From an uncultured Elusimicrobia bacterium (lineage in GTDB: Bacteria; Elusimicrobiota; Elusimicrobia; 2-01-FULL-59-12): DNA of 64,000 nt. A program made the position numbers and the translations under genes. Within the stretch, counting starts at the first letter, position 1; each line of letters begins with the position of its first letter. Below the pieces are notes generated by a model. It searched no databases. It worked only from the letters and a program-made list of their open reading frames with translations, and was not told the DNA's origin. The stretch lies in NCBI GenBank assembly GCA_963702895.1, contig OY969767.1, forward strand, positions 2,016,001 to 2,080,000, written 5' to 3'. Below are positions 36,859-51,000 of this stretch, piece after piece.

Positions 36859-39171
36859 TTAATTTGCACTCTGAAGCTCTTCATCAAAGGTGGCCTCAAA
36901 CTCCTGATAAGCCAGCCTGCAATCGAGATTGGCCTGCTGGCAGCTGGCGAGGATTTTCTTTAACAGCTTGATGCGTTCGGCGATCGTAGCGCCTGCAGCG
37001 ACCTTGCGGGAGTACTGCAACAACGCCTTTTCATAGCGAATTTGCGACTCGGAGCGCATTTCTTGGGCCTTTTGGGCGGTCGGCGGTTTTGGCGCCACCT
37101 CGGGCACCGTGACGACTGGTTTTGGCGCAGGCGCTGCCTTCGCAGGACCTGCGGTTCGGATAGGTTCTGGCGGCTCATGCTCATAGCGGATCGCTTTGTT
37201 CACAATCCGTTGGAGGGACGCGATTCCATCATTCATCGACATCCCCTGTGCGGGCAAGGACCGCTGGTAGTTCCAGGCCAGGTGCAGCCAAGCCATGTAA
37301 CGCAAGTCCCGCGCGTCTTGGAGGTTCCAGGGACGATTCACCAGGATGTTTTCCAGATACTTCTCCAGGGTGCGCATCAGATAATTCACGCGCTCAGGCT
37401 CTGAGGCTTGGCGCGATCGCAAGTGCGCGTAATAATTCTTTGTGTTCTGCAGTTCATCTTCCAGGTCCATAAACTCCGTGAGTTCCTTCTGAGAGCTCTC
37501 GAAGTAGCTCTTCCAAAGATCGAACTGGGCCTCAAAAGCACCGACACGATGCGCGGACGGCGCCATGAGCAGCGAAGAAACACGCACCAGGAGCTCCTCG
37601 ATGTTTTTCACTTGGGGCACGGGCGACACTCCCAGCGGTCGCGCAGCCGTCAGAGGCACCTGAAGATCTTCCAAAGTCACCGTGGGTGTCGTGGTTGTTG
37701 GGTCCTCCATGATCCCCTTCATCGCTTTGTCCGAAGGCGGCTCTATCTTGGGCGCTTCTTTTGCGAGATGCCCGAGCATCATCTCTGCAGTGACCTGTTC
37801 TTCGGAAGGCGTTCCCGCTCCGGCGCTTGGAGGAATGATGACGATGACGGCAGATCCCGGCTGAGCGGATTTTTGGGCTTGAGCAATCAGCTTCGAAACG
37901 TCTGACACGGATTGAGGCGCCGCGGCTTTTGCCCCTGATGAACCGCGTTGGGGCTGTCCCTGGATCAGCTGTTCCATCTCATTCAGTTCCTGGGCATAGG
38001 CCGAAGACGGCGTCTTGCGAGGTTTTTGCGTCACAGACTTTGGCGTGGCTTTCTTTGCGACAAGTAATTCACCAAGCACGACTGACTCTTCTTTCTTGGG
38101 CTCTTCTTTTTTGGTCTCTTTTTGCCTTGCTTTCAGGATGGGCTGGGCCGGCGCCTCGGGCACACCAAAGCGATAGCTCATCGAGAACCGATGTGTCCCG
38201 GAGGTATCGCCCAGCGTGATGCCGCCCAGATTAAAGACGAACGTATAGTCAAAACCGAGGGCCCCCATCTCATAGCCGCCTCCGAGCGCAAGCTGACGAT
38301 ACTGGCGACTTCCGGCGGCCAAAGACCCGCGGACCGCGACGCGGTCCCCGCCGATCAAACTCCACTTGCGTTCCGCGGCACCGGTCGCGATCGTGTCGCT
38401 CTGGTTGGAGAGTGTTTGCCGTCTTTGCAGGGCACCGGCAAAGCTCAGGTAGCGATTGCGGGCGTAGGAGATGGCCAGTCTTGTCGTGCGCGGGACAATT
38501 TCATGATCAGCGCTTGAGAGCGCGATATTGGGCTCATTGATGTCCTGGAGCGAGAGCGCCAGCGTCGTCTTATCCGTCCACCGGTACAGGGCGCCCAGGT
38601 CCGCGGAGTAGGCGGTGTTCGAGTGGCCGTTTTGCGTGAAGAAGTCGGGCGTGCCGGATTGAACGTTGCCGTTGTTGTCGACGATGATCTGGGGCACGCC
38701 AAAGGAGTGATAAAGCTGCTTGAGGGCCCCGCCAATGGCAATCTTGGACGTCAGCCACTCCCCGTAGCCTAAGGAGAGCGTGCGCTCCTTATAGAGGTCG
38801 TCGAGCCCGAACTGTTTCCAACTTACGGCCAGCGTCCCACCCCAGGACACGGGCTGGCCGTAAGCCAGATAGGTCTGTGATAAATTGGAGCCGTCGGAGA
38901 GGCCCGCGAAGAGTTTCGCGTACTCGGACGTGACTTCTTTCTGCCGGACGCGGGCCAAGGCCGCCGGGTTGTAGGCGAGAGACAGCACGTCATCGCCCAT
39001 CACCACATAGGTGTCACCCAGCGCGGTGCCGCGGGCGCCCGTCCCCTTATCCTCAAACGCCGCGTGGACGGGTACGGCAAACAGCGTAAATAGTGAATAG
39101 AAAATAGGAAGCGCAAGCGCTTGAACTATTGACCATTTACCATTCACGATGTTTGCCTTTGCTGTCATCAT
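36859..39171 (-). CDS. PorV/PorQ-like (FadL superfamily) outer-membrane beta-barrel with long C-terminal extension
   Basis: GARGTALG...DD....YNPAALA start motif and THRFSMSYRFG barrel end, then about 430 aa of Pro/Ala/Lys linker and helical sequence. Confidence 0.75.
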   Translation of the reverse strand: MMTAKANIVNGKWSIVQALALPIFYSLFTLFAVPVHAAFEDKGTGARGTALGDTYVVMGDDVLSLAYNPAALARVRQKEVTSEYAKLFAGLSDGSNLSQTYLAYGQPVSWGGTLAVSWKQFGLDDLYKERTLSLGYGEWLTSKIAIGGALKQLYHSFGVPQIIVDNNGNVQSGTPDFFTQNGHSNTAYSADLGALYRWTDKTTLALSLQDINEPNIALSSADHEIVPRTTRLAISYARNRYLSFAGALQRRQTLSNQSDTIATGAAERKWSLIGGDRVAVRGSLAAGSRQYRQLALGGGYEMGALGFDYTFVFNLGGITLGDTSGTHRFSMSYRFGVPEAPAQPILKARQKETKKEEPKKEESVVLGELLVAKKATPKSVTQKPRKTPSSAYAQELNEMEQLIQGQPQRGSSGAKAAAPQSVSDVSKLIAQAQKSAQPGSAVIVIIPPSAGAGTPSEEQVTAEMMLGHLAKEAPKIEPPSDKAMKGIMEDPTTTTPTVTLEDLQVPLTAARPLGVSPVPQVKNIEELLVRVSSLLMAPSAHRVGAFEAQFDLWKSYFESSQKELTEFMDLEDELQNTKNYYAHLRSRQASEPERVNYLMRTLEKYLENILVNRPWNLQDARDLRYMAWLHLAWNYQRSLPAQGMSMNDGIASLQRIVNKAIRYEHEPPEPIRTAGPAKAAPAPKPVVTVPEVAPKPPTAQKAQEMRSESQIRYEKALLQYSRKVAAGATIAERIKLLKKILASCQQANLDCRLAYQEFEATFDEELQSAN

Positions 39172-41111
39172 CGGGCGACGACCACGGTTCCCGTGGCACT
39201 CTCCTTTCCGGCCTGGATCTTGTAGAGGTAGACGCCGCTCGGCACGACAGCGCCGTTTCCGTCTCTTCCATCCCAGACCAGGGAGTTGGAAGTCGGCGAG
39301 AGACTGCTGAAGGTGATGTCTCGGACCACGGCACCGCGGATGTCGTAAATCGTTCCGGTCACGGGGTCACCCGACGGGTTGTCGAAGAACCAGAAGACGC
39401 GGTTGTTCTGCGACGGATCGTTGGGCGTGATCACGCGCGGGTAAGGCGAGTTCTGTGAGAGTTTGAAGACGGTTCCAATTTGGGTGGCGCGGACCTGGTA
39501 GATTCCGATGTTCCGAACGCTCACGGCGATCTGCTGGGCCGAGGTCAGGACAGGATCGCTCAGCCGGATGTAAGCGGCGCCGTTGTACCAGTAGACCGAG
39601 ACGATTTGAGCGATCGAACCCGGGCCAGGGTCAAGAAATTTCGTGCGGTAGTGGCCAGTTCCTAAAATTGCTCCAAGGCCCAGCTGGACCTGCATGTCGT
39701 TTCGCGAGAAGGCGAAGTTCGGCAACGGCCTGCCGGACTGAGCCAAATAGGCTTCAACGCGGTAGGACCGCAGGGTGACATCCACTTCGTCCTGGGCTCG
39801 GCGCACAATGACCAGCTCAACATCCTCGCCATAGCCGTTGAACCCAGCGTTCAGTTCATGAAGGAGCGCCGCAGGGACCACCACGCGCGTTGTCGGATCA
39901 TCGGCGGCCACGACAATGCGGTTCTCAAGGGTGTCCACATAATCAGAGGCCGCCGATGTGAAGCCGCCCACACCAACAGCAAAGACGCGGTAGTAATAGG
40001 TCTGTGCCCCCACCGCCTCGGAGTAGCTCAAGGTGTCGGCCCCTAAGGTCCCTACGAGCGTCGGAGTGGATTCAATCGCGTCGTACCGGTAGACCGAATA
40101 GTGGTCAAGAGTGATCGGCAGGTAATCTGTCGCGAGGGTGACGGAACTCCAGCTCACGGTAAAGAGACCCCCCGCATTGGAAGCGACAAGTCCATTGGGC
40201 CGCAAGGGTGTCCGGATGATCTGCAGACGTTCGGCAACGACTTCTGAAGAGGGCGGGCTCTCCCAGGCCGTGCCAGGATAGGTCGGCGCCCCTCGATCAA
40301 GGGCCGTGATGATGTAGTAGTAGGAGGTCCCTAGGACAACCGAGTTGTCGCTATAAGAGGTCCCCGTTGACGAACTGAGCAGAACGTAGCCGGTCCCGCT
40401 CTCTGTGGACCGATAAATTTGGTAGGCATCAAAATCAGGCCCTTTCTGGACCGTAGTGAGGTCGGTCCAGGCAAGGTCAATGGACGAGAGAGTGCCGGTC
40501 GCGCTGAGCCCGCTCGGCGTTCCAGGCACCAGATCAACAGGACTCGCTTGGGCAACCCCAGCGATATCGGACCAGAAATCGAGCGAGACGCCCACATCAT
40601 CGGCGGAACGGACGGCGATGTAATACGTGGCCCCAGGGAACAGTGCCAAGGTGTGGTCGGACCCGGTGCCGGGTGGCCCCAAGGTCCTTGTGACGGCATC
40701 CCCTGGAGACTCTCCGTAAAATCCTTGGGCTGTGAAACCGCCAGCGGTATTCCACCAGGCGGTCGTGCTCCCGCCAACGCTGGCCAGTGAAATCGTTTGG
40801 ATCCTGACTTGGTAGGCCTCAAGCGTACTCCCGGGGAATACGGTCGGCGCTGTCCAATCAAGGCGTAGTTGTCCTTCAACGGCCACAGGCGTGGTCGAAA
40901 GGTCAACAATCGTGGCTGGAGGAACTCCAGCAAACGGCCTGACGCTCAGAGAGGCGTCAACGAATGAAGCGGCATAAACCGGTCCGGGCGGGCCGAGTAA
41001 ACACAAAGCTCCCCCGACGAGCACCAGGTGCCGTATCCAACGCGTTACACGCGCGATGAAATTGTTCTCGCTCGTAAGTGCTCCTTTAACTTCCTTCCAT
41101 AACTCCTCCAC
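39168..41111 (-). CDS. Secreted FN3-repeat protein with FlgD-Ig / T9SS-like C-terminal domain
   Basis: LDWTAP, YQIYRS and YYYIITA FN3 patterns; YPRVITPND...IYDIRGAVVR...WDGRDGNGAVVPSGVYLYKI...GTVVVAR. Confidence 0.8.
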   Translation of the reverse strand: MEELWKEVKGALTSENNFIARVTRWIRHLVLVGGALCLLGPPGPVYAASFVDASLSVRPFAGVPPATIVDLSTTPVAVEGQLRLDWTAPTVFPGSTLEAYQVRIQTISLASVGGSTTAWWNTAGGFTAQGFYGESPGDAVTRTLGPPGTGSDHTLALFPGATYYIAVRSADDVGVSLDFWSDIAGVAQASPVDLVPGTPSGLSATGTLSSIDLAWTDLTTVQKGPDFDAYQIYRSTESGTGYVLLSSSTGTSYSDNSVVLGTSYYYIITALDRGAPTYPGTAWESPPSSEVVAERLQIIRTPLRPNGLVASNAGGLFTVSWSSVTLATDYLPITLDHYSVYRYDAIESTPTLVGTLGADTLSYSEAVGAQTYYYRVFAVGVGGFTSAASDYVDTLENRIVVAADDPTTRVVVPAALLHELNAGFNGYGEDVELVIVRRAQDEVDVTLRSYRVEAYLAQSGRPLPNFAFSRNDMQVQLGLGAILGTGHYRTKFLDPGPGSIAQIVSVYWYNGAAYIRLSDPVLTSAQQIAVSVRNIGIYQVRATQIGTVFKLSQNSPYPRVITPNDPSQNNRVFWFFDNPSGDPVTGTIYDIRGAVVRDITFSSLSPTSNSLVWDGRDGNGAVVPSGVYLYKIQAGKESATGTVVVAR

Positions 41112-41262: not shown

Positions 41263-41823
41263 TTACTGCGCCGTTCCGGTGAAACGTACTGTGATTTCCC
41301 GTGCGCTGTTGTCGGCGACACTCGTCGGCATATCCAGCCGGAACCACAGATCAACACTCGGCAATGAGCCGCCGGATGTTGTGACCACCGGACTACTTCC
41401 TCCCAACCCTCGCAGGGGGTTGGCTCCTGTTCCATCGAACAAGTGACTGGCCACGCTAAACGCACCACTGGCTGGACGAACGGCTGCCGTCGCCACGTAG
41501 AGCGCGTACGTATTCGCCGCATTGTTCGGTGAAGCGATCGTAGAGGCGAACCAGCCCGCAGGACTTGATTGCGTCTGGATTCGCTTATCGACCGTCACAT
41601 CCACTGAACCGTTATTCGACAAGCTCAGCGCAGAGGCCGTCACGGTTGTGACACCCACATCCAGCGACCCGAACGCATAAGTGGTCGGCGACAACGTCAG
41701 ATCCACCGTCGCGACAGGCGTGACTGTGATGGTGCCATCAACAGGGTTTGAGGCCCTTGCTTGACTGCTGGCCAGCGTTACGAAGACTCCGCATAGCGCA
41801 AGCCATTTGTGTGAATTACGCAT
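41263..41823 (-). CDS. Secreted pilin-like subunit 6 (diverged paralogue)
   Basis: Signal peptide, then SNPVDGTITVTPVATVDLTLSP...LWFRLDMP...REITVRFTGTAQ. Confidence 0.85.
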   Translation of the reverse strand: MRNSHKWLALCGVFVTLASSQARASNPVDGTITVTPVATVDLTLSPTTYAFGSLDVGVTTVTASALSLSNNGSVDVTVDKRIQTQSSPAGWFASTIASPNNAANTYALYVATAAVRPASGAFSVASHLFDGTGANPLRGLGGSSPVVTTSGGSLPSVDLWFRLDMPTSVADNSAREITVRFTGTAQ

Positions 41824-41891: not shown

Positions 41892-42458
41892 TTACAGTGC
41901 CGATCCAGTGAAGCGCACCGTGATTTCACGTGCGGTCTGCGCGCTGACTGCGCTCGGCATCGCCAGCTTGAACCACAGGCTCACGTTCGGCGTCGCTCCG
42001 CCTGAAGTCGTGATGGTGGGATCTCCACCGCCCAAGCCCTTCAAGCCGTTGGCTCCGGTCCCGTTGAACAGGTGGTCCGCGTCAACGAAGTCCCCTGTCG
42101 CAGGGCGTGCCGCCGCTGTCGCCACGTAGAGCGCGTACTTGTTCAGCGCTACTGCCGGCGAGCCGATCGTCGCGGCCGTCCAGCCCGCGGGACTTGACTC
42201 GGTCTGGATGTTCTTCTGGACGGTCACGTCCACACTGCCCGAGTTCGACAGCGTGATGGCTGTCGCCGCCACAGACGACGTATTGACGGTGAGCGGCCCG
42301 TAGGCGTAGGTGGTCGGTGACAAGGTCAAGTCCACCGTCGCCACGGGTGTCACCGTGATCGTGCCGTCTACGGGGTTGGCGGCTTGCGCCGTCCCCAGTC
42401 CCAACAACCCAATGCCCAACATCCCAAGCACAACCTTCCATCTTGTTCTGGTGTTCAT
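41892..42458 (-). CDS. Secreted pilin-like subunit 5
   Basis: 188 aa, AQA signal cleavage site, AAGGAGG ribosome-binding site; 754-bp tandem unit. Confidence 0.88.
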   Translation of the reverse strand: MNTRTRWKVVLGMLGIGLLGLGTAQAANPVDGTITVTPVATVDLTLSPTTYAYGPLTVNTSSVAATAITLSNSGSVDVTVQKNIQTESSPAGWTAATIGSPAVALNKYALYVATAAARPATGDFVDADHLFNGTGANGLKGLGGGDPTITTSGGATPNVSLWFKLAMPSAVSAQTAREITVRFTGSAL

Positions 42459-42645
42459 GTGTGTAGACCCTCCTTAAAGGTCGTTTGTCTGTTCGTCCTT
42501 GATGTCATCCCGGCGGTCCGTTCGCCATTCCTCCTGCCCACAAGGGACGGTCCCTCCCCTTGGAGCTTCCAGGACGGCAGCCGAGACCCGTGGCGTTCAT
42601 AAGCGCCACAGACATCCCGATAACGTCTCGGGGATGACGGTCTCT

Positions 42646-43212
42646 TTACAGTGCCGATCCAGTGAAGCGCACCGTGATTTCACGTGCGGTCTGCGCGCTG
42701 ACTGCGCTCGGCATCGCCAGCTTGAACCACAGGCTCACGTTCGGCGTCGCTCCGCCTGAAGTCGTGATGGTGGGATCTCCACCGCCCAAGCCCTTCAAGC
42801 CGTTGGCTCCGGTCCCGTTGAACAGGTGGTCCGCGTCAACGAAGTCCCCTGTCGCAGGGCGTGCCGCCGCTGTCGCCACGTAGAGCGCGTACTTGTTCAG
42901 CGCTACTGCCGGCGAGCCGATCGTCGCGGCCGTCCAGCCCGCGGGACTTGACTCGGTCTGGATGTTCTTCTGGACGGTCACGTCCACACTGCCCGAGTTC
43001 GACAGCGTGATGGCTGTCGCCGCCACAGACGACGTATTGACGGTGAGCGGCCCGTAGGCGTAGGTGGTCGGTGACAAGGTCAAGTCCACCGTCGCCACGG
43101 GTGTCACCGTGATCGTGCCGTCTACGGGGTTGGCGGCTTGCGCCGTCCCCAGTCCCAACAACCCAATGCCCAACATCCCAAGCACAACCTTCCATCTTGT
43201 TCTGGTGTTCAT
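42646..43212 (-). CDS. Secreted pilin-like subunit 4 (protein identical to subunit 5)
   Basis: Same translation as 41892-42458. Confidence 0.88.
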   Translation of the reverse strand: MNTRTRWKVVLGMLGIGLLGLGTAQAANPVDGTITVTPVATVDLTLSPTTYAYGPLTVNTSSVAATAITLSNSGSVDVTVQKNIQTESSPAGWTAATIGSPAVALNKYALYVATAAARPATGDFVDADHLFNGTGANGLKGLGGGDPTITTSGGATPNVSLWFKLAMPSAVSAQTAREITVRFTGSAL

Positions 43213-43399
43213 GTGTGTAGACCCTCCTTAAAGGTCGTTTGTCTGTTCGTCCTTGATGTCATCCCGGCGGTCCGTTCGCCATTCCTCCTGCCCACAAGGG
43301 ACGGTCCCTCCCCTTGGAGCTTCCAGGACGGCAGCCGAGACCCGTGGCGTTCATAAGCGCCACAGACATCCCGATAACGTCTCGGGGATGACGGTCTCT

Positions 43400-43966
43400 T
43401 TACAGTGCCGATCCAGTGAAGCGCACCGTGATTTCACGTGCCGTCTGCGCGCTGACCGCGCTCGGCATGTTCAGCTTGAACCACAGGCTCACGTTCGGCG
43501 TCGCTCCGCCTGAAGTCGTGATGGTGGGATCTCCACCGCCCAAGCCCTTCAAGCCGTTGGCTCCGGTCCCGTTGAACAGGTGGTCCGCGTCAACGAAGTC
43601 CCCTGTCGCAGGGCGTGCCGCCGCTGTCGCCACGTAGAGCGCGTACTTGTTCAGCGCTACCGCCGGCGAGCCGATCGTCGCGGCTGTCCAGCCCGCGGGA
43701 CTTGACTCGGTCTGGATCCTCTTCGTGCAGGTCACGTCCACACTGCCCGAGTTCGACAGCGTGATGGCTGTCGCCGCCACAGACGACGTATTGACGGTGA
43801 GCGGCCCGTAGGCGTAGGTGGTCGGTGACAAGGTCAAGTCCACCGTCGCCACGGGTGTCACCGTGATCGTGCCGTCTACGGGGTTGGCCGCCTGCGCCGT
43901 CCCCAGTCCCAACAACCCAATGCCCAACATCCCAAGCACAACCTTCCATCTTGTTCTGGTGTTCAT
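43400..43966 (-). CDS. Secreted pilin-like subunit 3
   Basis: Variant carrying CTKR and LNMP. Confidence 0.88.
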   Translation of the reverse strand: MNTRTRWKVVLGMLGIGLLGLGTAQAANPVDGTITVTPVATVDLTLSPTTYAYGPLTVNTSSVAATAITLSNSGSVDVTCTKRIQTESSPAGWTAATIGSPAVALNKYALYVATAAARPATGDFVDADHLFNGTGANGLKGLGGGDPTITTSGGATPNVSLWFKLNMPSAVSAQTAREITVRFTGSAL

Positions 43967-44153
43967 GTGTGTAGACCCTCCTTAAAGGTCGTTTGTCTGT
44001 TCGTCCTCGATGTCATCCCGGCGGTCCGTTCGCCATTCCTCCTGCCCACAAGGGACGGTCCCTCCCCTTGCAGCGTCCAGGACGGCAGCCGAGACCCGTG
44101 GCGTTCATAAGCGCCACAGACATCCCGATAACGTCTCGGGGATGACGGTCTCT

Positions 44154-44720
44154 TTACAGTGCCGATCCAGTGAAGCGCACCGTGATTTCGCGTGCCGTCT
44201 GCGCGCTGACCGCGCTCGGCATCGCCAGCTTGAACCACAGGCTCACGTTCGGCGTCGCTCCGCCTGAAGTCGTGATGGTGGGATCTCCACCGCCCAAGCC
44301 CTTCAAGCCGTTGGCTCCGGTCCCGTTGAACAGGTGGTCCGCGTCAACGAAGTCCCCTGTCGCAGGGCGTGCCGCCGCTGTCGCCACGTAGAGCGCGTAC
44401 TTGTTCAGCGCTACCGCCGGCGAGCCGATCGTCGCGGCTGTCCAGCCCGCGGGACTTGACTCGGTCTGGATCCTCTTCGTGCAGGTCACGTCCACACTGC
44501 CCGAGTTCGACAGCGTGATGGCTGTCGCCGCCACAGACGACGTATTGACGGTGAGCGGCCCGTAGGCGTAGGTGGTCGGTGACAAGGTCAAGTCCACCGT
44601 CGCCACGGGTGTCACCGTGATCGTGCCGTCTACGGGGTTGGCCGCCTGCGCCGTCCCCAGTCCCAACAACCCAATGCCCAACATCCCAAGCACAACCTTC
44701 CATCTTGTTCTGGTGTTCAT
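44154..44720 (-). CDS. Secreted pilin-like subunit 2
   Basis: Variant carrying CTKR and LAMP. Confidence 0.88.
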   Translation of the reverse strand: MNTRTRWKVVLGMLGIGLLGLGTAQAANPVDGTITVTPVATVDLTLSPTTYAYGPLTVNTSSVAATAITLSNSGSVDVTCTKRIQTESSPAGWTAATIGSPAVALNKYALYVATAAARPATGDFVDADHLFNGTGANGLKGLGGGDPTITTSGGATPNVSLWFKLAMPSAVSAQTAREITVRFTGSAL

Positions 44721-44852: not shown

Positions 44853-45416
44853 TTACAGTGCCGTTCCAGTGAAGCGCACCGTGATTTCGCGTGCCGTCTG
44901 CGCGCTGACTGCGCTCGGCATGTTCAGCTTGAACCACAGGCTCACGTTCGGCGTCGCTCCGCCTGAAGTCGTGATGGTGGGATCTCCACCGCCCAAGCCC
45001 TTCAAGCCGTTGGCTCCGGTCCCGTTGAACAGGTGGTCCGCGTCAACGAAGTCCCCTGTCGCAGGGCGTGCCGCCGCTGTCGCCACGTAGAGCGCGTACT
45101 TGTTCAGCGCTACCGCCGGCGAGCCGATCGTCGCGGCCGTCCAGCCCGCGGGACTTGACTCGGTCTGGATCCTCTTCGTGCAGGTCACGTCCACGGTCCC
45201 GGTATTGCTCAACGTGACCGCTGTTGCCGATACCGAAGACGCGCTCACGGCGAGCGGCCCAAAGGCGTAAGTGGTGGGTGCAAGCGTCAAGTCCACCGTC
45301 GCCACGGGTGTCACCGTGATCGTGCCGTCCACGGGGTTAGCGGCTTGCGCCGTCCCCAGTCCCAAAAACCCGAAGCCCAACACCCACGTCATGATTCTTT
45401 TCATGTTCGTATGCAT
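44853..45416 (-). CDS. Secreted pilin-like subunit 1
   Basis: Different signal peptide and N-terminal third; the remainder is nearly identical to subunit 3. Confidence 0.88.
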   Translation of the reverse strand: MHTNMKRIMTWVLGFGFLGLGTAQAANPVDGTITVTPVATVDLTLAPTTYAFGPLAVSASSVSATAVTLSNTGTVDVTCTKRIQTESSPAGWTAATIGSPAVALNKYALYVATAAARPATGDFVDADHLFNGTGANGLKGLGGGDPTITTSGGATPNVSLWFKLNMPSAVSAQTAREITVRFTGTAL

Positions 45417-45431: not shown

Positions 45432-46727
45432 TTACTTCGCCACGCTGATATAGACGCGGCTGTAGACTTCCACCGGAATATCCCGTCCCTGCAGGCCGCC
45501 CTGGATGACAAACATGAAGCGTTTCCCGCGTATGGCTGGGTCATCGGGAAGTTCCAGGGTGATGGAGGTGCTCTTGATACTGTCACCGGGGACTTTGAGG
45601 TCCGTGTGTTTGACTTTGATCCACTCCGGCTTTCCGTACTCGTACCCGGACGCCGCGGCCATTCCGCCTGGCGCTGGCACCGAGGCAACCTTGAAGTTCA
45701 AGGTTTGAGGGCTGCGATTGATGAGGCTGAGTCGAACCCCCATCTCGGAGAGGTCCACCTTCTTCCCTGGCACCATAAAGCCGGGGACATACTGAAGGTC
45801 CGGCTCAAGGGTAAAGTTGAGCATCTGGTAGATGCCCTGTTTCTGCAGGCGGCGAATTTCTTCGGGGCCCGCCGAGCCGACGCTAAAACGCAATCGGCTC
45901 GACAACGCAATCCCGAAGGACAACGCTGTGACCTGCCCAGGCGGTGGTTCCGGTGTGGTCGCTGTCAGATGGGCCTGGAAATGCCGTCCCACATACTCTT
46001 CACCCGGCGGGACTTGAAGAATGACATCCACGAGACCCTCTTCGCCGGCGGCCAGCTTGAGGCGGCCAGGGACCAATTTGATCCAGGACGGATCGACAAT
46101 CGCCTCATAACCAGGCTTGAGCTGCTCTTTGCTGGGGATTTCGACTTCCACCTGGAGTTCGACTTCGCCGTTGGAGCGGTTCTCCACACGGTAAGGCAGG
46201 TTCCGCATGGTCCGGAGGTTGTAGATTTTGCCCGGCTGGACATGCTCCATGATGACGTCGGCGAACTTGGTGCCCACGTTGTAGCCGGCTTCCGCTGGCG
46301 TCGCGGAAAAGCCCAACGCGCCTGCGAGCAGCACGGCGATGAGCCCTTTCCAGAAACGACCGGTGTCGGAAGGGTAATCACCGCCTCGTTCGGCAAGCGC
46401 AACGGCCTCGAGGGTCTTACGAATACCCCGGAAACGCGCCTGTCCATACCATGGCCGGAAGGGCGTGGTCTTGGGAGCTGGCGTGGAGGCCGCTTTGACC
46501 ACATCCAAGGCGTACATCTCTTCCGCTGGAGTGGCCAACTGGTAGCGGTGAGGCTTCTCTTCGATGAGAAGCCCACCGGAGGTGAGGTTTTCCAGGATCG
46601 CGACGCAAGAGTCGAAGGGGACCCCCTGTTCGCGGCTGATGTCATGAGCGGAGCGCCATGACGTGCTCTTGTCCTTGAAGGCGCGCAGGCACATCAAGGC
46701 ATACTGAATGCTTTGCTGATTATTCAC
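45432..46727 (-). CDS. Rrf2-like winged-HTH fused through a TM/signal segment to two Ig-like (chaperone-like) domains
   Basis: QYALMCL...AHDISREQGVP...ILENLTSGGLL...YQLATPAEE..ALDVV; hydrophobic LIAVLLAGALGF..AEA; SWIKLVPGRLKLAAGE...ILQVP and EWIKV...LKVPGD...LELP. Confidence 0.7.
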   Translation of the reverse strand: MNNQQSIQYALMCLRAFKDKSTSWRSAHDISREQGVPFDSCVAILENLTSGGLLIEEKPHRYQLATPAEEMYALDVVKAASTPAPKTTPFRPWYGQARFRGIRKTLEAVALAERGGDYPSDTGRFWKGLIAVLLAGALGFSATPAEAGYNVGTKFADVIMEHVQPGKIYNLRTMRNLPYRVENRSNGEVELQVEVEIPSKEQLKPGYEAIVDPSWIKLVPGRLKLAAGEEGLVDVILQVPPGEEYVGRHFQAHLTATTPEPPPGQVTALSFGIALSSRLRFSVGSAGPEEIRRLQKQGIYQMLNFTLEPDLQYVPGFMVPGKKVDLSEMGVRLSLINRSPQTLNFKVASVPAPGGMAAASGYEYGKPEWIKVKHTDLKVPGDSIKSTSITLELPDDPAIRGKRFMFVIQGGLQGRDIPVEVYSRVYISVAK

Positions 46728-46929: not shown

Positions 46930-47574
46930 TTAAGCGGCTCTCTTGGCTTTTGTCTTTCCGCCTAAAACCATCCGGACCTGAATCAAGGAACGACACAGTT
47001 CCTTGAGTGTGATGCCCTGATCTTGGGCCATTTTTTGAAGCGTCCGGTGCGCTTCATCTTCCGTGTAGCCTTGCTGATCCATCAAAATCCCTTTGGCTTT
47101 TTCGAGAAGTTTGCGTGTTTCCAAAGTTTCGGAAAGCGTCTTCATTTCTTCTTTGAGGGATTTGATCGTTAGGAAACGGTGCCAGGCGCCCTCGATCATC
47201 GGAACGACTTGGGAGGTTTCGATGGGCTTGGCCATATAGGCGCTAGCGCCCAAATCCAAGGCTTGACGGCCGATCTTCGCTGATCCGTCTGCCGTCAAGA
47301 TGACCACAGCGGTCGTTTGAAGGGGCACGATTTGCGCAAGCGCCTCGAGGCCACTCGACTGTGGCATGTGAACATCCATCACGATAACGTCTGGCTTTTT
47401 TTCTTTCACAAGCGCCACAGCTTCCAGGCCGTTGTTGGCGATCCCGAGGATTTGATATTGGGATTGGCAGACGAGTTGCAGAACATTCAGAATGTCCAGT
47501 TGATCATCAGCAAACGCTACAGTTTTAACTCGTTCCATCGGCTCAAGTCTATGGTGAATCCGTAGTGATTTCAA
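46930..47574 (-). CDS. REC-ANTAR response regulator (AmiR/NasT/EutV type; start may be 47538)
   Basis: ADD, MDVHMP, LTA and KP receiver residues; LETRKLLEKAKGILM...TEDEAHRTLQKMA ANTAR domain. Confidence 0.92.
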   Translation of the reverse strand: MKSLRIHHRLEPMERVKTVAFADDQLDILNVLQLVCQSQYQILGIANNGLEAVALVKEKKPDVIVMDVHMPQSSGLEALAQIVPLQTTAVVILTADGSAKIGRQALDLGASAYMAKPIETSQVVPMIEGAWHRFLTIKSLKEEMKTLSETLETRKLLEKAKGILMDQQGYTEDEAHRTLQKMAQDQGITLKELCRSLIQVRMVLGGKTKAKRAA

Positions 47575-47620: not shown

Positions 47621-48097
47621 CTATTTCTCTATGGTAAAGCGCAGTCTCGAAAGTAGTCCGGGACTCACGGACACAGCTGCATCGCTCATCGGTGCTCCTC
47701 GAGTCCAGATCATGATTTGGTAGGGTTGCTCATGACGTTTCACAGAACGTGGGACGATGAGGGTGATCTGGAAGATGCCTTCCCCCCGCGCCGGGAGAAT
47801 TAATTCGTCAGGATCCAGGCGTACCCAAGCCGTCTCAGAAATGGGGATCGCCCCATCCTTCAGCTGGGCCTGGGTTGGAACGAGAGCTTGGACTTTGACA
47901 CGGATGGGCGTGTTTCCTAAGTTTTTGAGCACCAAGCCTTTGCCGCTAGGCCCGCTCACGACATAAGGCTGCCCGCTTGGAACTCCCCGAACGAAGACAT
48001 CACTGAAAGACGTGGATAGACCTTCGGCACACTCACCAAGCGGAGAAAGCGCCCCTAGCATGACACCCAAGATCAAAAAGCAACGTATTCTTATCAT
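47621..48097 (-). CDS. Secreted single Ig-like (chaperone-like) protein
   Basis: ATG overlaps the adhesin stop (ATGA); signal peptide. FSDV..., WVRLDPDELILPARGE..ITLIVP and LSRLRFTI parallel the first Ig domain of 45432-46727. Confidence 0.75.
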   Translation of the reverse strand: MIRIRCFLILGVMLGALSPLGECAEGLSTSFSDVFVRGVPSGQPYVVSGPSGKGLVLKNLGNTPIRVKVQALVPTQAQLKDGAIPISETAWVRLDPDELILPARGEGIFQITLIVPRSVKRHEQPYQIMIWTRGAPMSDAAVSVSPGLLSRLRFTIEK

Positions 48098-51000
48098 GGC
48101 GCGGTCGCCGTCACCGTCAGAATCATTTGCTGCTGATTGGTCGTGCTCGTGGTCGGAGGCGTATCCAGGCGAAGCCAAAGATTGCGGCTAGCGCTCACAG
48201 GAACAGACACGCCTGTCTGGTTGGCTCCGTAAATGCCCGGCGTCGATGCGGTCGGAGTGCTGATGATGATGTCGGTCGAAGAAAAGATATCGCTCAGAGG
48301 CTGGACCGAATTGAACTTACCGAACATGGCAAAGGTGTTGCGCGACGTGGGGAGAGCAGTCCCTACCCCCCACACCGTTGTCGGGCCTGAGGTTGTAATC
48401 GAAAGGGAAAATGTCTCTGCGACATTGCCCGTATTGGTGACGGCGATGGCAGATCCTGAGACGACGGTGCTGGCGACAGGAACGGAACCAAAGTCATAAC
48501 TCGAGGGGGACAAGCTCAGCGACAGGATAACGAAGGTCCAATTGGTGTTATTTTCAGAATCGATGGAATCGGGCCCCGCGGCGATCACGACACCCGCGCT
48601 CGCGCTGGAATAAGCGACATCGACATACGATACCGTATTTGTGGACGTGTTGTTCAAATACCACATTTGGTCCGGAGGCGTCGGCCGGATCCACACGGTG
48701 TTGCCACTCGACCCCCTCAGGACGAGATTGGCAATCGTAAACGTGGAATGGGCGTTGAAGTAGACCGTCGTCGCGCTGGCCAGGCCGGCGCCATCGACGG
48801 TAAGTTTGGTGGCGGTGAAGCTCGAAGCAAACGTCACGCCGCCGCTGGAGGTGTTCGAATCAATTAAGACCCAGAAGGGCAGGCCGGCATTCGTGATGGT
48901 TTGGGCCGAGGAGCCCGTCAGGGCCACGGTGCTCCGGTTGACCGTAAAGGCCCCGCTGTTGAGCTGCATGTCGCCGCCCAAATCCACCCGGTAGGAATTG
49001 GCGTTGGTGTTCATGGTCCCACCGCTAATGATGAAATCACCGTCAATCGCGATATCGGAACCCAGCGTCCACACCATACTTCCCCCCAAGGTGAGGTTCC
49101 CCACAATGGGAGAGGTAAAGGTCGTGCAGGTCTTGGCGCCGCTGCCGCTAAAGGTCAGGTTGTAGTATTGGGCGTTCTTGCAGGTTTGCGCGCCCGCCAA
49201 GGCGTAGTTCACCGTGTTGGAACTCGACACAAAGTCGACGGTGGTGACGGCCATGGCGTTGGTCGTGGCGCCGCTGGCGTTTAGGACAGAATCCAACCCT
49301 TGCGTCCAAGACCCGCCGCCGGTCAAGGTGCTCGAGGCGTTGACCGTGCCGTTGTTCGTGACTGACCCTGTCACGGTGAAGACGCCCGGGGTGGTGAGCG
49401 TCCCGTTGTTGGTCAAGGTCATGCCGGCTGCTACGGTGAGCGTCGTGATGCTCATGGTACCGCTGAGCGCTTGATTGTTGGTGTTGAAGGTGGCCGTACC
49501 AGTGATGGCGATGCTTCCGGAAGTCCGGGTGAGGCCGCCTCGAAACACGATCCCGGTGCTGGCGCCGCTGAGCGTTCCGCCGCTCACCGTGACCAGTCCC
49601 GCGAAGAGTTTTGAGCCTGTGTCGCTGGTGAGCGATACCGTTCCCCCTGAGAGCGTCGAAGCCCCTGTCACCCAGAACTGAAACGCGCCGGTGGTGAGCG
49701 TGCCGCCGGAAGCAAGAATCCCGCCATTGACCGTTACGGATGAGCCCAGCGTCCAGGCGGCGGTCCCGCCCATTTCGATATTCCCTAAGATCGGAGACGT
49801 AAAGGTGGTGCAAGTCTTGACGCCGCTGCCTCCGAAGGCGAGGTTGTAGTACTGGATATTCCTGCAGGTCTGGATGCCGGCGAAATTGTAGCGGACGGTG
49901 TTGCCACTGGCATTCGCTGTCAGCGTCGTGATTCCGGGCGTGCCGGTGAAGTTGAGGTTGAGCGTGCCGCCGGCGGCGTTGGTGAACCCACCTGTTCCGT
50001 TGAGCGCGGTGTTGACCGTAATCGTGCCTTGGTTGGTGAGCGTGGTTCCCGTAATCGTCAAGGTGGCCAGGTTGAGACTGGCGGTGTTGGTGTAGGCGGT
50101 GGTGAACGTGGGGCTGCCAAAGTCTGTGGCGCCCGCTGTGCCGCTGATGGTGCCCCCACCCACCTTGGCAAAGGCCGGCAGGAACGTCGTGGCGGCAGCG
50201 CCGGAGGTCGTACCGTTCATCACCAGATTTCCGTTGATATTGACCGTTTCAGCCGCTGTCACATTGAAATCACCATCCACGGTGAGTGTGTCGTTAAAGG
50301 TCTTGGAGCCGGTCGTGCTGGGAATCTGAAGCGTCCCGCCAGCATCCACTTGAACATCCACAAATATGGAAGTGCCTGTATCCGTGTTGAGTATTCCACC
50401 GTTTCCGATCGTCACGGTCTTATTAAACGTCTTGTTGCCCGTCGCGTTGGTGAGCGTCAAGGTCCCGTAGACATCGACGCTGCCGTTGGCGGTAAAGTCG
50501 AATCCGGCCGTGGTCAGTGTGCTGCCGCTGCGAACCGTAAGACTGGAGATCGTCACAGCCGCCGTGGGGACAGGCATGAAGGTGGCCGTGGACACGATCA
50601 ACACGGAATCCTGGGACGTGGGATACCCCTCATCCCAGTTGGACCAGTTCCACCAGTTGGTGTCGACAGCTCCCCACCAGGTCCGGATTTGTCCGGTGAG
50701 AAAACTCCAAAAGAAATTGTTCCCTGAATTGACGCTCGTGCCGTCATTGGCCACGATCGCTCTTCCCGAACGAGCGTCGGAATCCCGCACGTCCACATAC
50801 ACCCCGGAACTCGTCCCCGTATTGTTCAAATACCAGTTGGTGTCATCGATCGTAGACCTCAGCCAGATCTTTTTGCCGCTGGCACCTACCAGAGACAGGG
50901 TCGTGATGGTAAAAGTTGAATTGGCATTGAAGTAGACCGTCGTTTCGTTCGCCAAGTCGGCGCGGTTGATCATGAGCTTGGTGGCGGTGAAGCTCGAAGC

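Follow-up and report, generated by a model that had tools for sequence, protein, structure and literature searches.

The subject of this analysis is a putative pilus locus in a 64,000-nucleotide stretch of DNA from an uncultured Elusimicrobia bacterium (contig OY969767.1; the whole stretch is called the window below), and above all a secreted protein encoded next to six pilins, which carries behind its signal peptide a strand resembling the N-terminal strand of these pilins. In the direction of transcription, the locus encodes an adhesin, a 185-aa protein, an ANTAR regulator, a 431-aa protein, the six pilins, a protein with FN3 domains and a C-terminal domain (CTD) resembling those of type IX secretion system (T9SS) substrates, and an outer-membrane barrel. 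The FN3/CTD protein, referred to as the anchor protein in the following, is probably the donor-only end piece of a pilus built by donor-strand exchange and tethered to the outer membrane by its CTD and the barrel. Strand homology, independence of the strand from the FN3 domains, modelled docking, co-variation and synteny were computed here. The features of the locus are the following:

39168..41111, minus strand: putative end-cap/anchor protein, 647 aa as called, with signal peptide, donor strand, three FN3 domains, a beta domain and a T9SS-like CTD

40971..41054, minus strand: predicted Sec-type signal peptide with basic start, hydrophobic core and VYA, read by eye and from orthologues

40929..40970, minus strand: donor strand of the putative end-cap/anchor protein, residues 48-61, homologous to the pilin N-terminal strand

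39924..40928, minus strand: three FN3 domains, residues ~62-190, 193-298 and 300-396, from fold matches and the monomer model

39171..39476, minus strand: C-terminal FlgD_ig/T9SS-type sorting domain (PF13860, TIGR04183)

41263-41823, 41892-42458, 42646-43212, 43400-43966, 44154-44720 and 44853-45416, minus strand: six pilin genes, whose products each have a signal peptide, a free N-terminal strand and an immunoglobulin (Ig)-like body that is incomplete

42339..42380, minus strand: reference pilin donor strand, residues 27-40 of the pilin at 41892-42458, from the pilin model and alignment

36859..39171, minus strand: PorV/PorQ-like outer-membrane barrel (residues ~31-340; NF033709) with a long C-terminal extension, overlapping the anchor stop codon

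48094..59310, minus strand: putative tip adhesin, a repeat protein of 3,738 aa with a C-terminal pilin domain at 48097-48525

45432..46727, minus strand: putative chaperone, 431 aa, composed of an N-terminal Rrf2-like domain, a signal/membrane segment and two Ig-like halves, in this order

47621..48178, minus strand: single-domain homologue of the putative chaperone, 185 aa (phmmer E 3e-12 to the 431-aa protein)

The peptide ASFVDASLSVRPFA, which is the translation of 40929-40970 (minus strand) and represents residues 48-61 of the 647-aa open reading frame at 39168-41111, begins immediately past a signal-peptide-like stretch ending in ...GPVYA, cleavage after VYA being judged from the basic/hydrophobic/A-x-A layout and from orthologues. 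An earlier note, made from the letters of this DNA, had claimed that it aligns without gaps with the pilin strand, and this was borne out for pilin residues 27-40, with 6 of 14 residues identical and a BLOSUM62 score of 28. Scores of at least 28 against the pilin strand are reached by only 13 of the 919,060 14-mers in source-genome frames of at least 250 aa, and the 10.2 bits attained on a profile of 70 related pilin strands by only 5 of them, the anchor strand itself being counted in both cases. The sequence pattern given in the earlier note matches only five of the six pilins and the anchor protein among 22,192 source-genome frames; the sixth pilin, whose strand starts with S, is picked up by a looser pattern. 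Since a phylum-wide strand profile gives the anchor strand only 2.3 bits, which is not above background, its likeness appears to be to the pilins of its own family and not to a universal motif.

The remainder of the anchor protein is unrelated to the subunits, as the earlier note had stated: neither searches with the pilins nor a hidden Markov model (HMM) of the pilin body yielded a match there. Residues 62-396 are FN3, with no acceptor (pilin) domain detected by the same pilin queries and HMM, and residues 398-545 form a beta domain for which the fold-search rows are filled by FN3. In the monomer model (mean pLDDT 81.5, from a 20-sequence alignment), residues 33-57 have pLDDT values below 50, the first FN3 domain has seven predicted strands of its own, the donor strand not being among them, and the structural matches to FN3 over this domain begin at residues 58-70 (one row at 54). 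An integral FN3 strand is thus ruled out by the low pLDDT of residues 33-57 and by the starts of the FN3 matches, and the other objection foreseen in the earlier note, a motif not conserved in orthologues, fails likewise, the donor strand being conserved among anchor orthologues.

The six pilins are near-identical, secreted proteins of 186-188 aa, whose mature ends open with the related strand. Four of their genes (41892-44720) are near-identical tandem copies with a spacing of ~754 bases, and other loci also contain tandem pilin copies, up to eight. The pilin model (pLDDT 90) leaves the N-terminal strand unpaired. Its best Foldseek match is the TasA fibre 8aur (E 5.9e-4), the sole match below 0.001, followed by archaeal cannulae, bundling pili, TLP-1 and chaperone-usher pilins, while VIA-align gave no Z of at least 8 and mixed PapD-like/MSP domains with filament subunits in its top rows. 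The modelled fold thus appears to show a general Ig-like likeness to donor-strand subunits rather than membership of one of their families. By sequence, the pilin family received no assignment in Pfam, NCBIfam or PDB sequences; a match to choice_anch_D of NCBIfam (E 5e-4) stays below the cut-off, and a profile of 39 pilins matched no PDB sequence.

Co-folding of the anchor strand with a strand-deleted subunit was run with anchor residues 48-187 and the strand-less pilin (44-188), using self-built input alignments. The groove is filled in the prediction, with an ipSAE of 0.79 versus 0.00 for the best of three controls; of 157 solved complexes, 116 attain this mark, as against 2 of 215 mismatched pairs. 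Contacts are shared between the runs to 100%, the partner pLDDT is at least 79, and the tightest contacts place partner residues 4-10 antiparallel to pilin residues 177-183, the last strand. This model supports a role of the anchor strand in completing the pilin fold, in antiparallel orientation to the last strand.

A further line of evidence comes from the variation of the strand between loci. Around pilin or FN3 hits, 60 stretches were fetched from genomes of the phylum, 19 of which were left out (2 overlapping, 17 without a free pilin or FN3-type partner within the stretch). From the other 41 and the window, one locus failed the partner rule and two the pilin-strand rule, leaving 39 loci, which represent 37 genomes and 16 families; in these loci, the 20 residues preceding the first FN3 domain of each partner were scored against pilin strands. 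As expected by the earlier note for orthologues that co-vary with their own pilins, the mean score is 28.5 for strands of the own locus versus 15.4 for foreign ones (permutation p 5e-5), and 28.9 versus 23.8+-1.3 (p 1e-4) if the 30 loci suited to it are shuffled within families, these p values being overstated because the loci are related by kinship and not independent. The own score exceeds the foreign mean in 37 of the 39 loci, and for disjoint nearest pairs the own score exceeds the swapped one in 15 of 19 pairs by the FN3 tree (3 against, 1 tie; p 0.004) and in 14 of 19 by the pilin tree (p 0.03). The correspondence is also apparent by eye, as in ANPEDG/ANPADG (L031), AATEDL/ALTEDL (L033), ANPDTL/ANPDTM (L038) and AASKNIAIHV/AATKSIEIHV (L111). 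Three control windows of the same proteins (signal region, FN3 residues 0-20 and 20-40) showed no tracking (p 0.30-0.57, with 0.30 for the signal peptide), by which an artefact of composition is ruled out.

The codons at identical residues agree in 107 of 227 cases versus 97.5 expected (z 1.36). Because this agreement does not exceed the expectation, the strand match appears to be maintained by selection on the protein, i.e., by co-evolution; a recent transfer of DNA from a pilin gene, whether by copying or by gene conversion, is not supported. The earlier description of the strand as copied therefore holds in the sense of homology and co-evolution, but not in that of a recent copying event. 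A CTD protein without an FN3 hit (L048:9848-11143, genome G104) carries a strand which matches its own pilins at 29-31 and foreign pilins at a mean of 6.9 and a maximum of 16, indicating that the strand goes with the CTD and the pilins and not with FN3. No comparable donor strand was recorded at the adhesin junction of 25 long frames that end in a pilin domain (own 6.4 versus foreign 5.5), where a single high row (L097, 58) represents a pilin inside a longer frame. At the locus in the window, the last 143 residues of the adhesin constitute a pilin domain (E 2e-11) without the donor strand, covering profile positions 16-168 only.

As to the tether, the anchors of the loci end in a CTD beta strand instead of an LPxTG motif with a membrane helix. 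The CTD of the anchor protein in the window matches PF13860 (FlgD_ig) with E 1.5e-8, over the cut-off, and TIGR04183 with 27.1 bits versus a cut-off of 23, scoring best as type A. Among the 38 loci other than the window, the partner has a CTD in 34, and a PorV-like barrel lies directly downstream of the anchor in 31; of the seven loci lacking the barrel, three are truncated at the border of the fetched stretch and four are not. The source genome contains 14 PorV-like barrel frames, 9 of them with NF033709-type matches over the cut-off and 11 within 6 kb of a CTD gene, as well as an SprA/Sov-like frame of 1,813 aa (G000:C1:1185972-1191413, corresponding to L121:1973-7414, minus strand). Four stretches of this frame match TIGR04189 (best E 6e-18, below the cut-off), it also matches PF14349 (E 1.9e-4), and orthologues of it occur in 353 of 401 Elusimicrobiota genomes. 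No match to the outer-membrane usher PF00577 was present in the source genome, which is 98% complete, the E. coli control being positive. Likewise, no PorU body was found in the source genome, where PorU matches cover the CTD part only; GldL, GldM and GldN gave no match there, but 14 controls were silent as well, and GldK was not searched for. Taken together, an SprA-like protein, many CTD proteins and PorV-like barrels in the source genome and the phylum possibly represent a reduced T9SS-like system across the Elusimicrobiota.

Filament formation, a chaperone role, the export route, membrane attachment and the order of assembly are features which we infer for the system. Each pilin would be an Ig-like body that lacks one strand and takes up, in its place, the N-terminal strand of the neighbouring pilin. 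The giant adhesin with its strand-less pilin domain could only accept and would sit at one end of the fibre, while the anchor protein, having the strand but no pilin body, could only donate and would be placed at the opposite end because of donor-strand polarity. Its FN3 domains may act as a spacer, and its T9SS-like CTD would most likely be exported through the SprA-like translocon and then stay on the adjacent PorV-family barrel, thereby tying the fibre to the outer membrane. The end-cap role is well supported by the computations. Anchoring to the membrane through CTD and barrel would follow by analogy with the T9SS pairs of CTD protein and carrier, and with this reservation we consider it likely that the CTD mediates export and that the protein then stays attached to the neighbouring barrel. 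Of the earlier statement that the protein ends and anchors the fibre, the predicted donor-only end position stands, and the anchoring would be as outlined here; both a terminator added last, as ElrB or PapH, and a nucleator added first, as TapA, fit the sequence.

Several observations weigh against this interpretation. On the side of the strand, in two of the 39 loci (L034 and L096) the score against the own pilin falls below the foreign mean, and the contrast between own and swapped strands is small or negative among the closest pairs. The co-fold result may partly reflect memory, as similar complexes have already been solved, and its three controls comprise neither a strand-deleted nor a scrambled-strand version. 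On the side of the tether, no same-strand barrel is found within 3.5-5.2 kb downstream of the anchor in L044, L089, L098 and L100, and the anchor of L044 has no CTD hit. The adjacent barrel in the window matches NF033709 with E 1.7e-12 and 47.6 bits, below the cut-off of 90, and the co-divergence of CTDs and barrels in the source genome is borderline (Mantel 0.24, p 0.057). The pilins and the adhesin carry no CTD, so the CTD does not explain their export. Finally, type A CTDs of Bacteroidota are normally released from PorV (PMC10994853).

The alternative that survives best, although we regard it as unlikely, places the protein at the same end of the fibre but reverses the order of events. As a TapA-like nucleator and export leader, it would donate its strand to the first pilin and start the fibre, the CTD exiting first and the CTD-less pilins following or being added afterwards, with the adhesin as the true terminator. 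This fits the description of TapA as a complete Ig fold which cannot accept a strand, has a TasA-like N terminus and acts at the filament start (PMC10151520), and TasA is the top Foldseek match of the pilin. T9SS substrates of Bacteroidota are moreover described as leaving the translocon CTD-first on their carrier barrel (PMC10994853), and only the anchor has a CTD at this locus. However, a putative chaperone gene is present in the fetched stretch of 34 of the 38 loci, as in the chaperone-usher and Elr pathways, which start with the adhesin and add the donor-only piece last (10.64898/2026.10.17.759780), and the gene order likewise runs from the adhesin to the donor-only piece. A second, distal cap or cell-to-cell linker on a released or bridging fibre, with a CTD serving export only and an FN3 stack binding a ligand, is very improbable: a CTD scoring best as type A (TIGR04183 over the cut-off), whose cargo is described as releasable, and an FN3 number varying from 1 to >5, as in adhesins, would agree with it, but the barrel gene adjoins the anchor in 31 of 38 loci, resembling the CTD/carrier pairs reported to anchor cargo (PMC9143113, PMC12618676), and no CTD-cleaving PorU body was found in the source genome. 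That the strand is intramolecular in the FN3 protein, or a remnant of a duplication of the pilin 5' end, maintained by gene conversion, in either case with no role in a fibre, is already largely refuted and hardly credible, despite an identity of just 6/14, the mutual resemblance of amphipathic strands and the 2.3 bits on the phylum-wide profile, since the strand is unfolded in the monomer model outside the FN3 matches, tracks the local pilin in 16 families without codon-level copying (p 0.30 for the signal-peptide window) and recurs on the non-FN3 CTD protein of L048.

A donor-only end piece as such is a known principle, represented by ElrB, TapA and PapH. PapH, the terminator of the chaperone-usher P pili (PDB 2j2z), reportedly donates its strand, cannot itself undergo exchange, terminates the pilus of a diderm and anchors it, and is said to be a pilin-fold protein held in the usher together with its chaperone. 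Unlike PapH, the end piece described here lacks a pilin body, and an usher was not found in the source genome. The closest parallel in logic and operon plan is ElrB of the Elr/WxL pilus of Enterococcus faecalis, as presented in a preprint (bioRxiv 10.64898/2026.10.17.759780): that system comprises an adhesin ending in a strand-less pilin domain, together with pilins, a chaperone and a donor-only piece with a surface-sorting signal, and its subunit exchange also has the donor strand antiparallel to the last strand of the acceptor, as in the present co-fold. The donor-only role of ElrB was likewise predicted by modelling (10.64898/2026.10.17.759780). However, ElrB is a 13-kDa protein of a monoderm and carries an LPxTG motif for sortase, whereas the protein here has 647 aa, FN3 domains and a T9SS-like CTD with a PorV-like barrel in a diderm, and the Elr/WxL system was found by its authors only in Bacillota (10.64898/2026.10.17.759780). 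The WxL domain PF13731 was neither among the 25 of 32 families shown for 70 pilins nor among all 8 families shown for 39 pilins (E<=1), and WxL is the nearest named cluster to the pilin in the Atlas at 0.82, which is to be taken as a lead.

TapA of the TasA fibres of Bacillus subtilis is a complete Ig-type protein at the filament end with a subunit-like N terminus, nearly identical to that of TasA, which donates but does not receive and acts at the filament start as inducer/chaperone (PMC10151520). That system has no outer membrane, CTD or barrel, and the part of the paper used here mentions no tip adhesin with a pilin domain. The likeness to TasA is one of fold only, the Peptidase_M73/TasA/camelysin sequence family being hit by 1 of 70 pilin members at E 0.11. 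By the tests run, the end piece appears not to be a member of the WxL or TasA families, with no sequence match, no LPxTG motif and no usher. For the tether, the T9SS pairs PG1035-PorP and SprB-SprF are the relevant models, in which the gene of a CTD protein adjoins that of its own barrel, and this barrel receives the protein and can hold it at the surface (PMC9143113, PMC12618676); type B substrates are described as staying anchored on the carrier and as often encoded beside it. These Bacteroidota pairs combine type B CTDs with PorP/SprF barrels, the Gld/Por motor and single adhesins as cargo, whereas the CTD here scores as FlgD_ig/type A, the barrel is PorV-like and the cargo would be a polymer. 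What would be new is the coupling of a donor-only piece to a T9SS-like CTD and a barrel in an usher-less diderm pilus. Among open papers and preprints, the supplement of the preprint aside, none was found on this pilus or on an SprA/T9SS-like system in Elusimicrobiota; a co-mention in PMC12204202 is unrelated.

More tentatively, the Elusimicrobiota may possess a distinct class of pili, assembled by donor-strand exchange with the help of chaperones, without usher or sortase, in which a reduced T9SS-like machine replaces the usher. The SprA-like translocon and dedicated PorV-like barrels, perhaps without a Gld motor, would do the work of the usher, and the protein with strand and CTD would use non-covalent strand complementation to take the CTD-less pilins and the adhesin with it across the outer membrane, and would afterwards moor the fibre on its own barrel. 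Fusions between chaperone-like or pilin domains and CTDs would be short-cuts of the same piggy-back export. Fusions of a chaperone-like domain to a CTD are encoded at L105:11747-13000, L106:8260-9510 and L107:6951-8528 (genome G135), next to a barrel and to small adhesins that end in a pilin domain, with no strand-bearing pilin detected in the stretches; this arrangement could amount to a pilus of zero length. In genome G041, L118:8624-9892, lying between chaperone/pilin genes and a barrel, encodes the direct fusion of a pilin domain with a CTD, which may be an alternative to the anchor or an earlier form of it. Both kinds of fusion hint that cargo with pilin domains rides out on CTD-bearing partners.

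Other CTD proteins were noted in the vicinity of anchors and elsewhere. A small stand-alone CTD protein with a signal-like N terminus often lies between anchor and barrel (L033, L035, L036, L037, L050, L082 and others), and is missing from the locus in the window. The source genome also encodes 13 large CTD-bearing proteins within ~47 kb (G000:C1:2185276-2232109), with no PorV-like barrel detected among them. As to the anchor gene itself, its putative start region (41060-41111) shows a ribosome-binding-like site followed by an in-frame ACG-AGC-GA, which is conserved in the window, L031 and L032 and was not seen in L038; a weak or unusual start codon could keep the anchor protein rare. No terminator was listed between the last pilin and the anchor, the counts being at chance level. 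A close orthologue of the anchor in the window, at a contig end in a genome of a different family (L094:5376-7244, genome G339), has an intact strand and a barrel downstream, and no pilin match of this genome was among the matches listed. In genome G326 (L097:8130-10137), the anchor gene is split across two reading frames, representing either a sequence error or a broken gene.

The 185-aa and 431-aa proteins are related to each other and to Ig-like families, and may be read as chaperones. Six of 41 chaperone-like proteins weakly match PF06030 (DUF916/DUF3324, WxLIP; best E 0.019; Atlas 0.86), no PapD Pfam is among the 24 families listed for the 41 members, and comparison with the PDB gave only weak MSP/VAP matches. 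The weak leads to WxL and WxLIP leave a remote kinship to WxL pili open. In the 431-aa protein (45432-46727), the Rrf2-like helix-turn-helix domain is fused in frame before the signal/membrane segment, a layout shared by L032 (genome G064), and the response regulator with an ANTAR domain encoded at 46930-47574 within the pilus operon suggests control at the RNA level.

The pilin family occurs in 102 of the 401 genomes of the phylum searched; a narrow alignment scan returned four loci, all labelled Elusimicrobiota, and 1,854 representatives match at E<=0.001. The family is thus common in a little-studied phylum, in which the SprA-like gene is nearly universal, while type IX secretion is described as confined to Bacteroidota or the FCB group in the papers found on it. 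The co-variation of strand and groove provides a natural set for studying how the specificity of strand exchange evolves, and the parts of the pilus are small enough for in vitro work without culture of the host. Donor-only end pieces are known from three systems, with usher, sortase and cell wall as tethers. If the interpretation proposed here is true, a T9SS-like CTD on a dedicated barrel would be the fourth tether, and donor-strand pili and type IX secretion, which have been treated as separate machines, would become linked.

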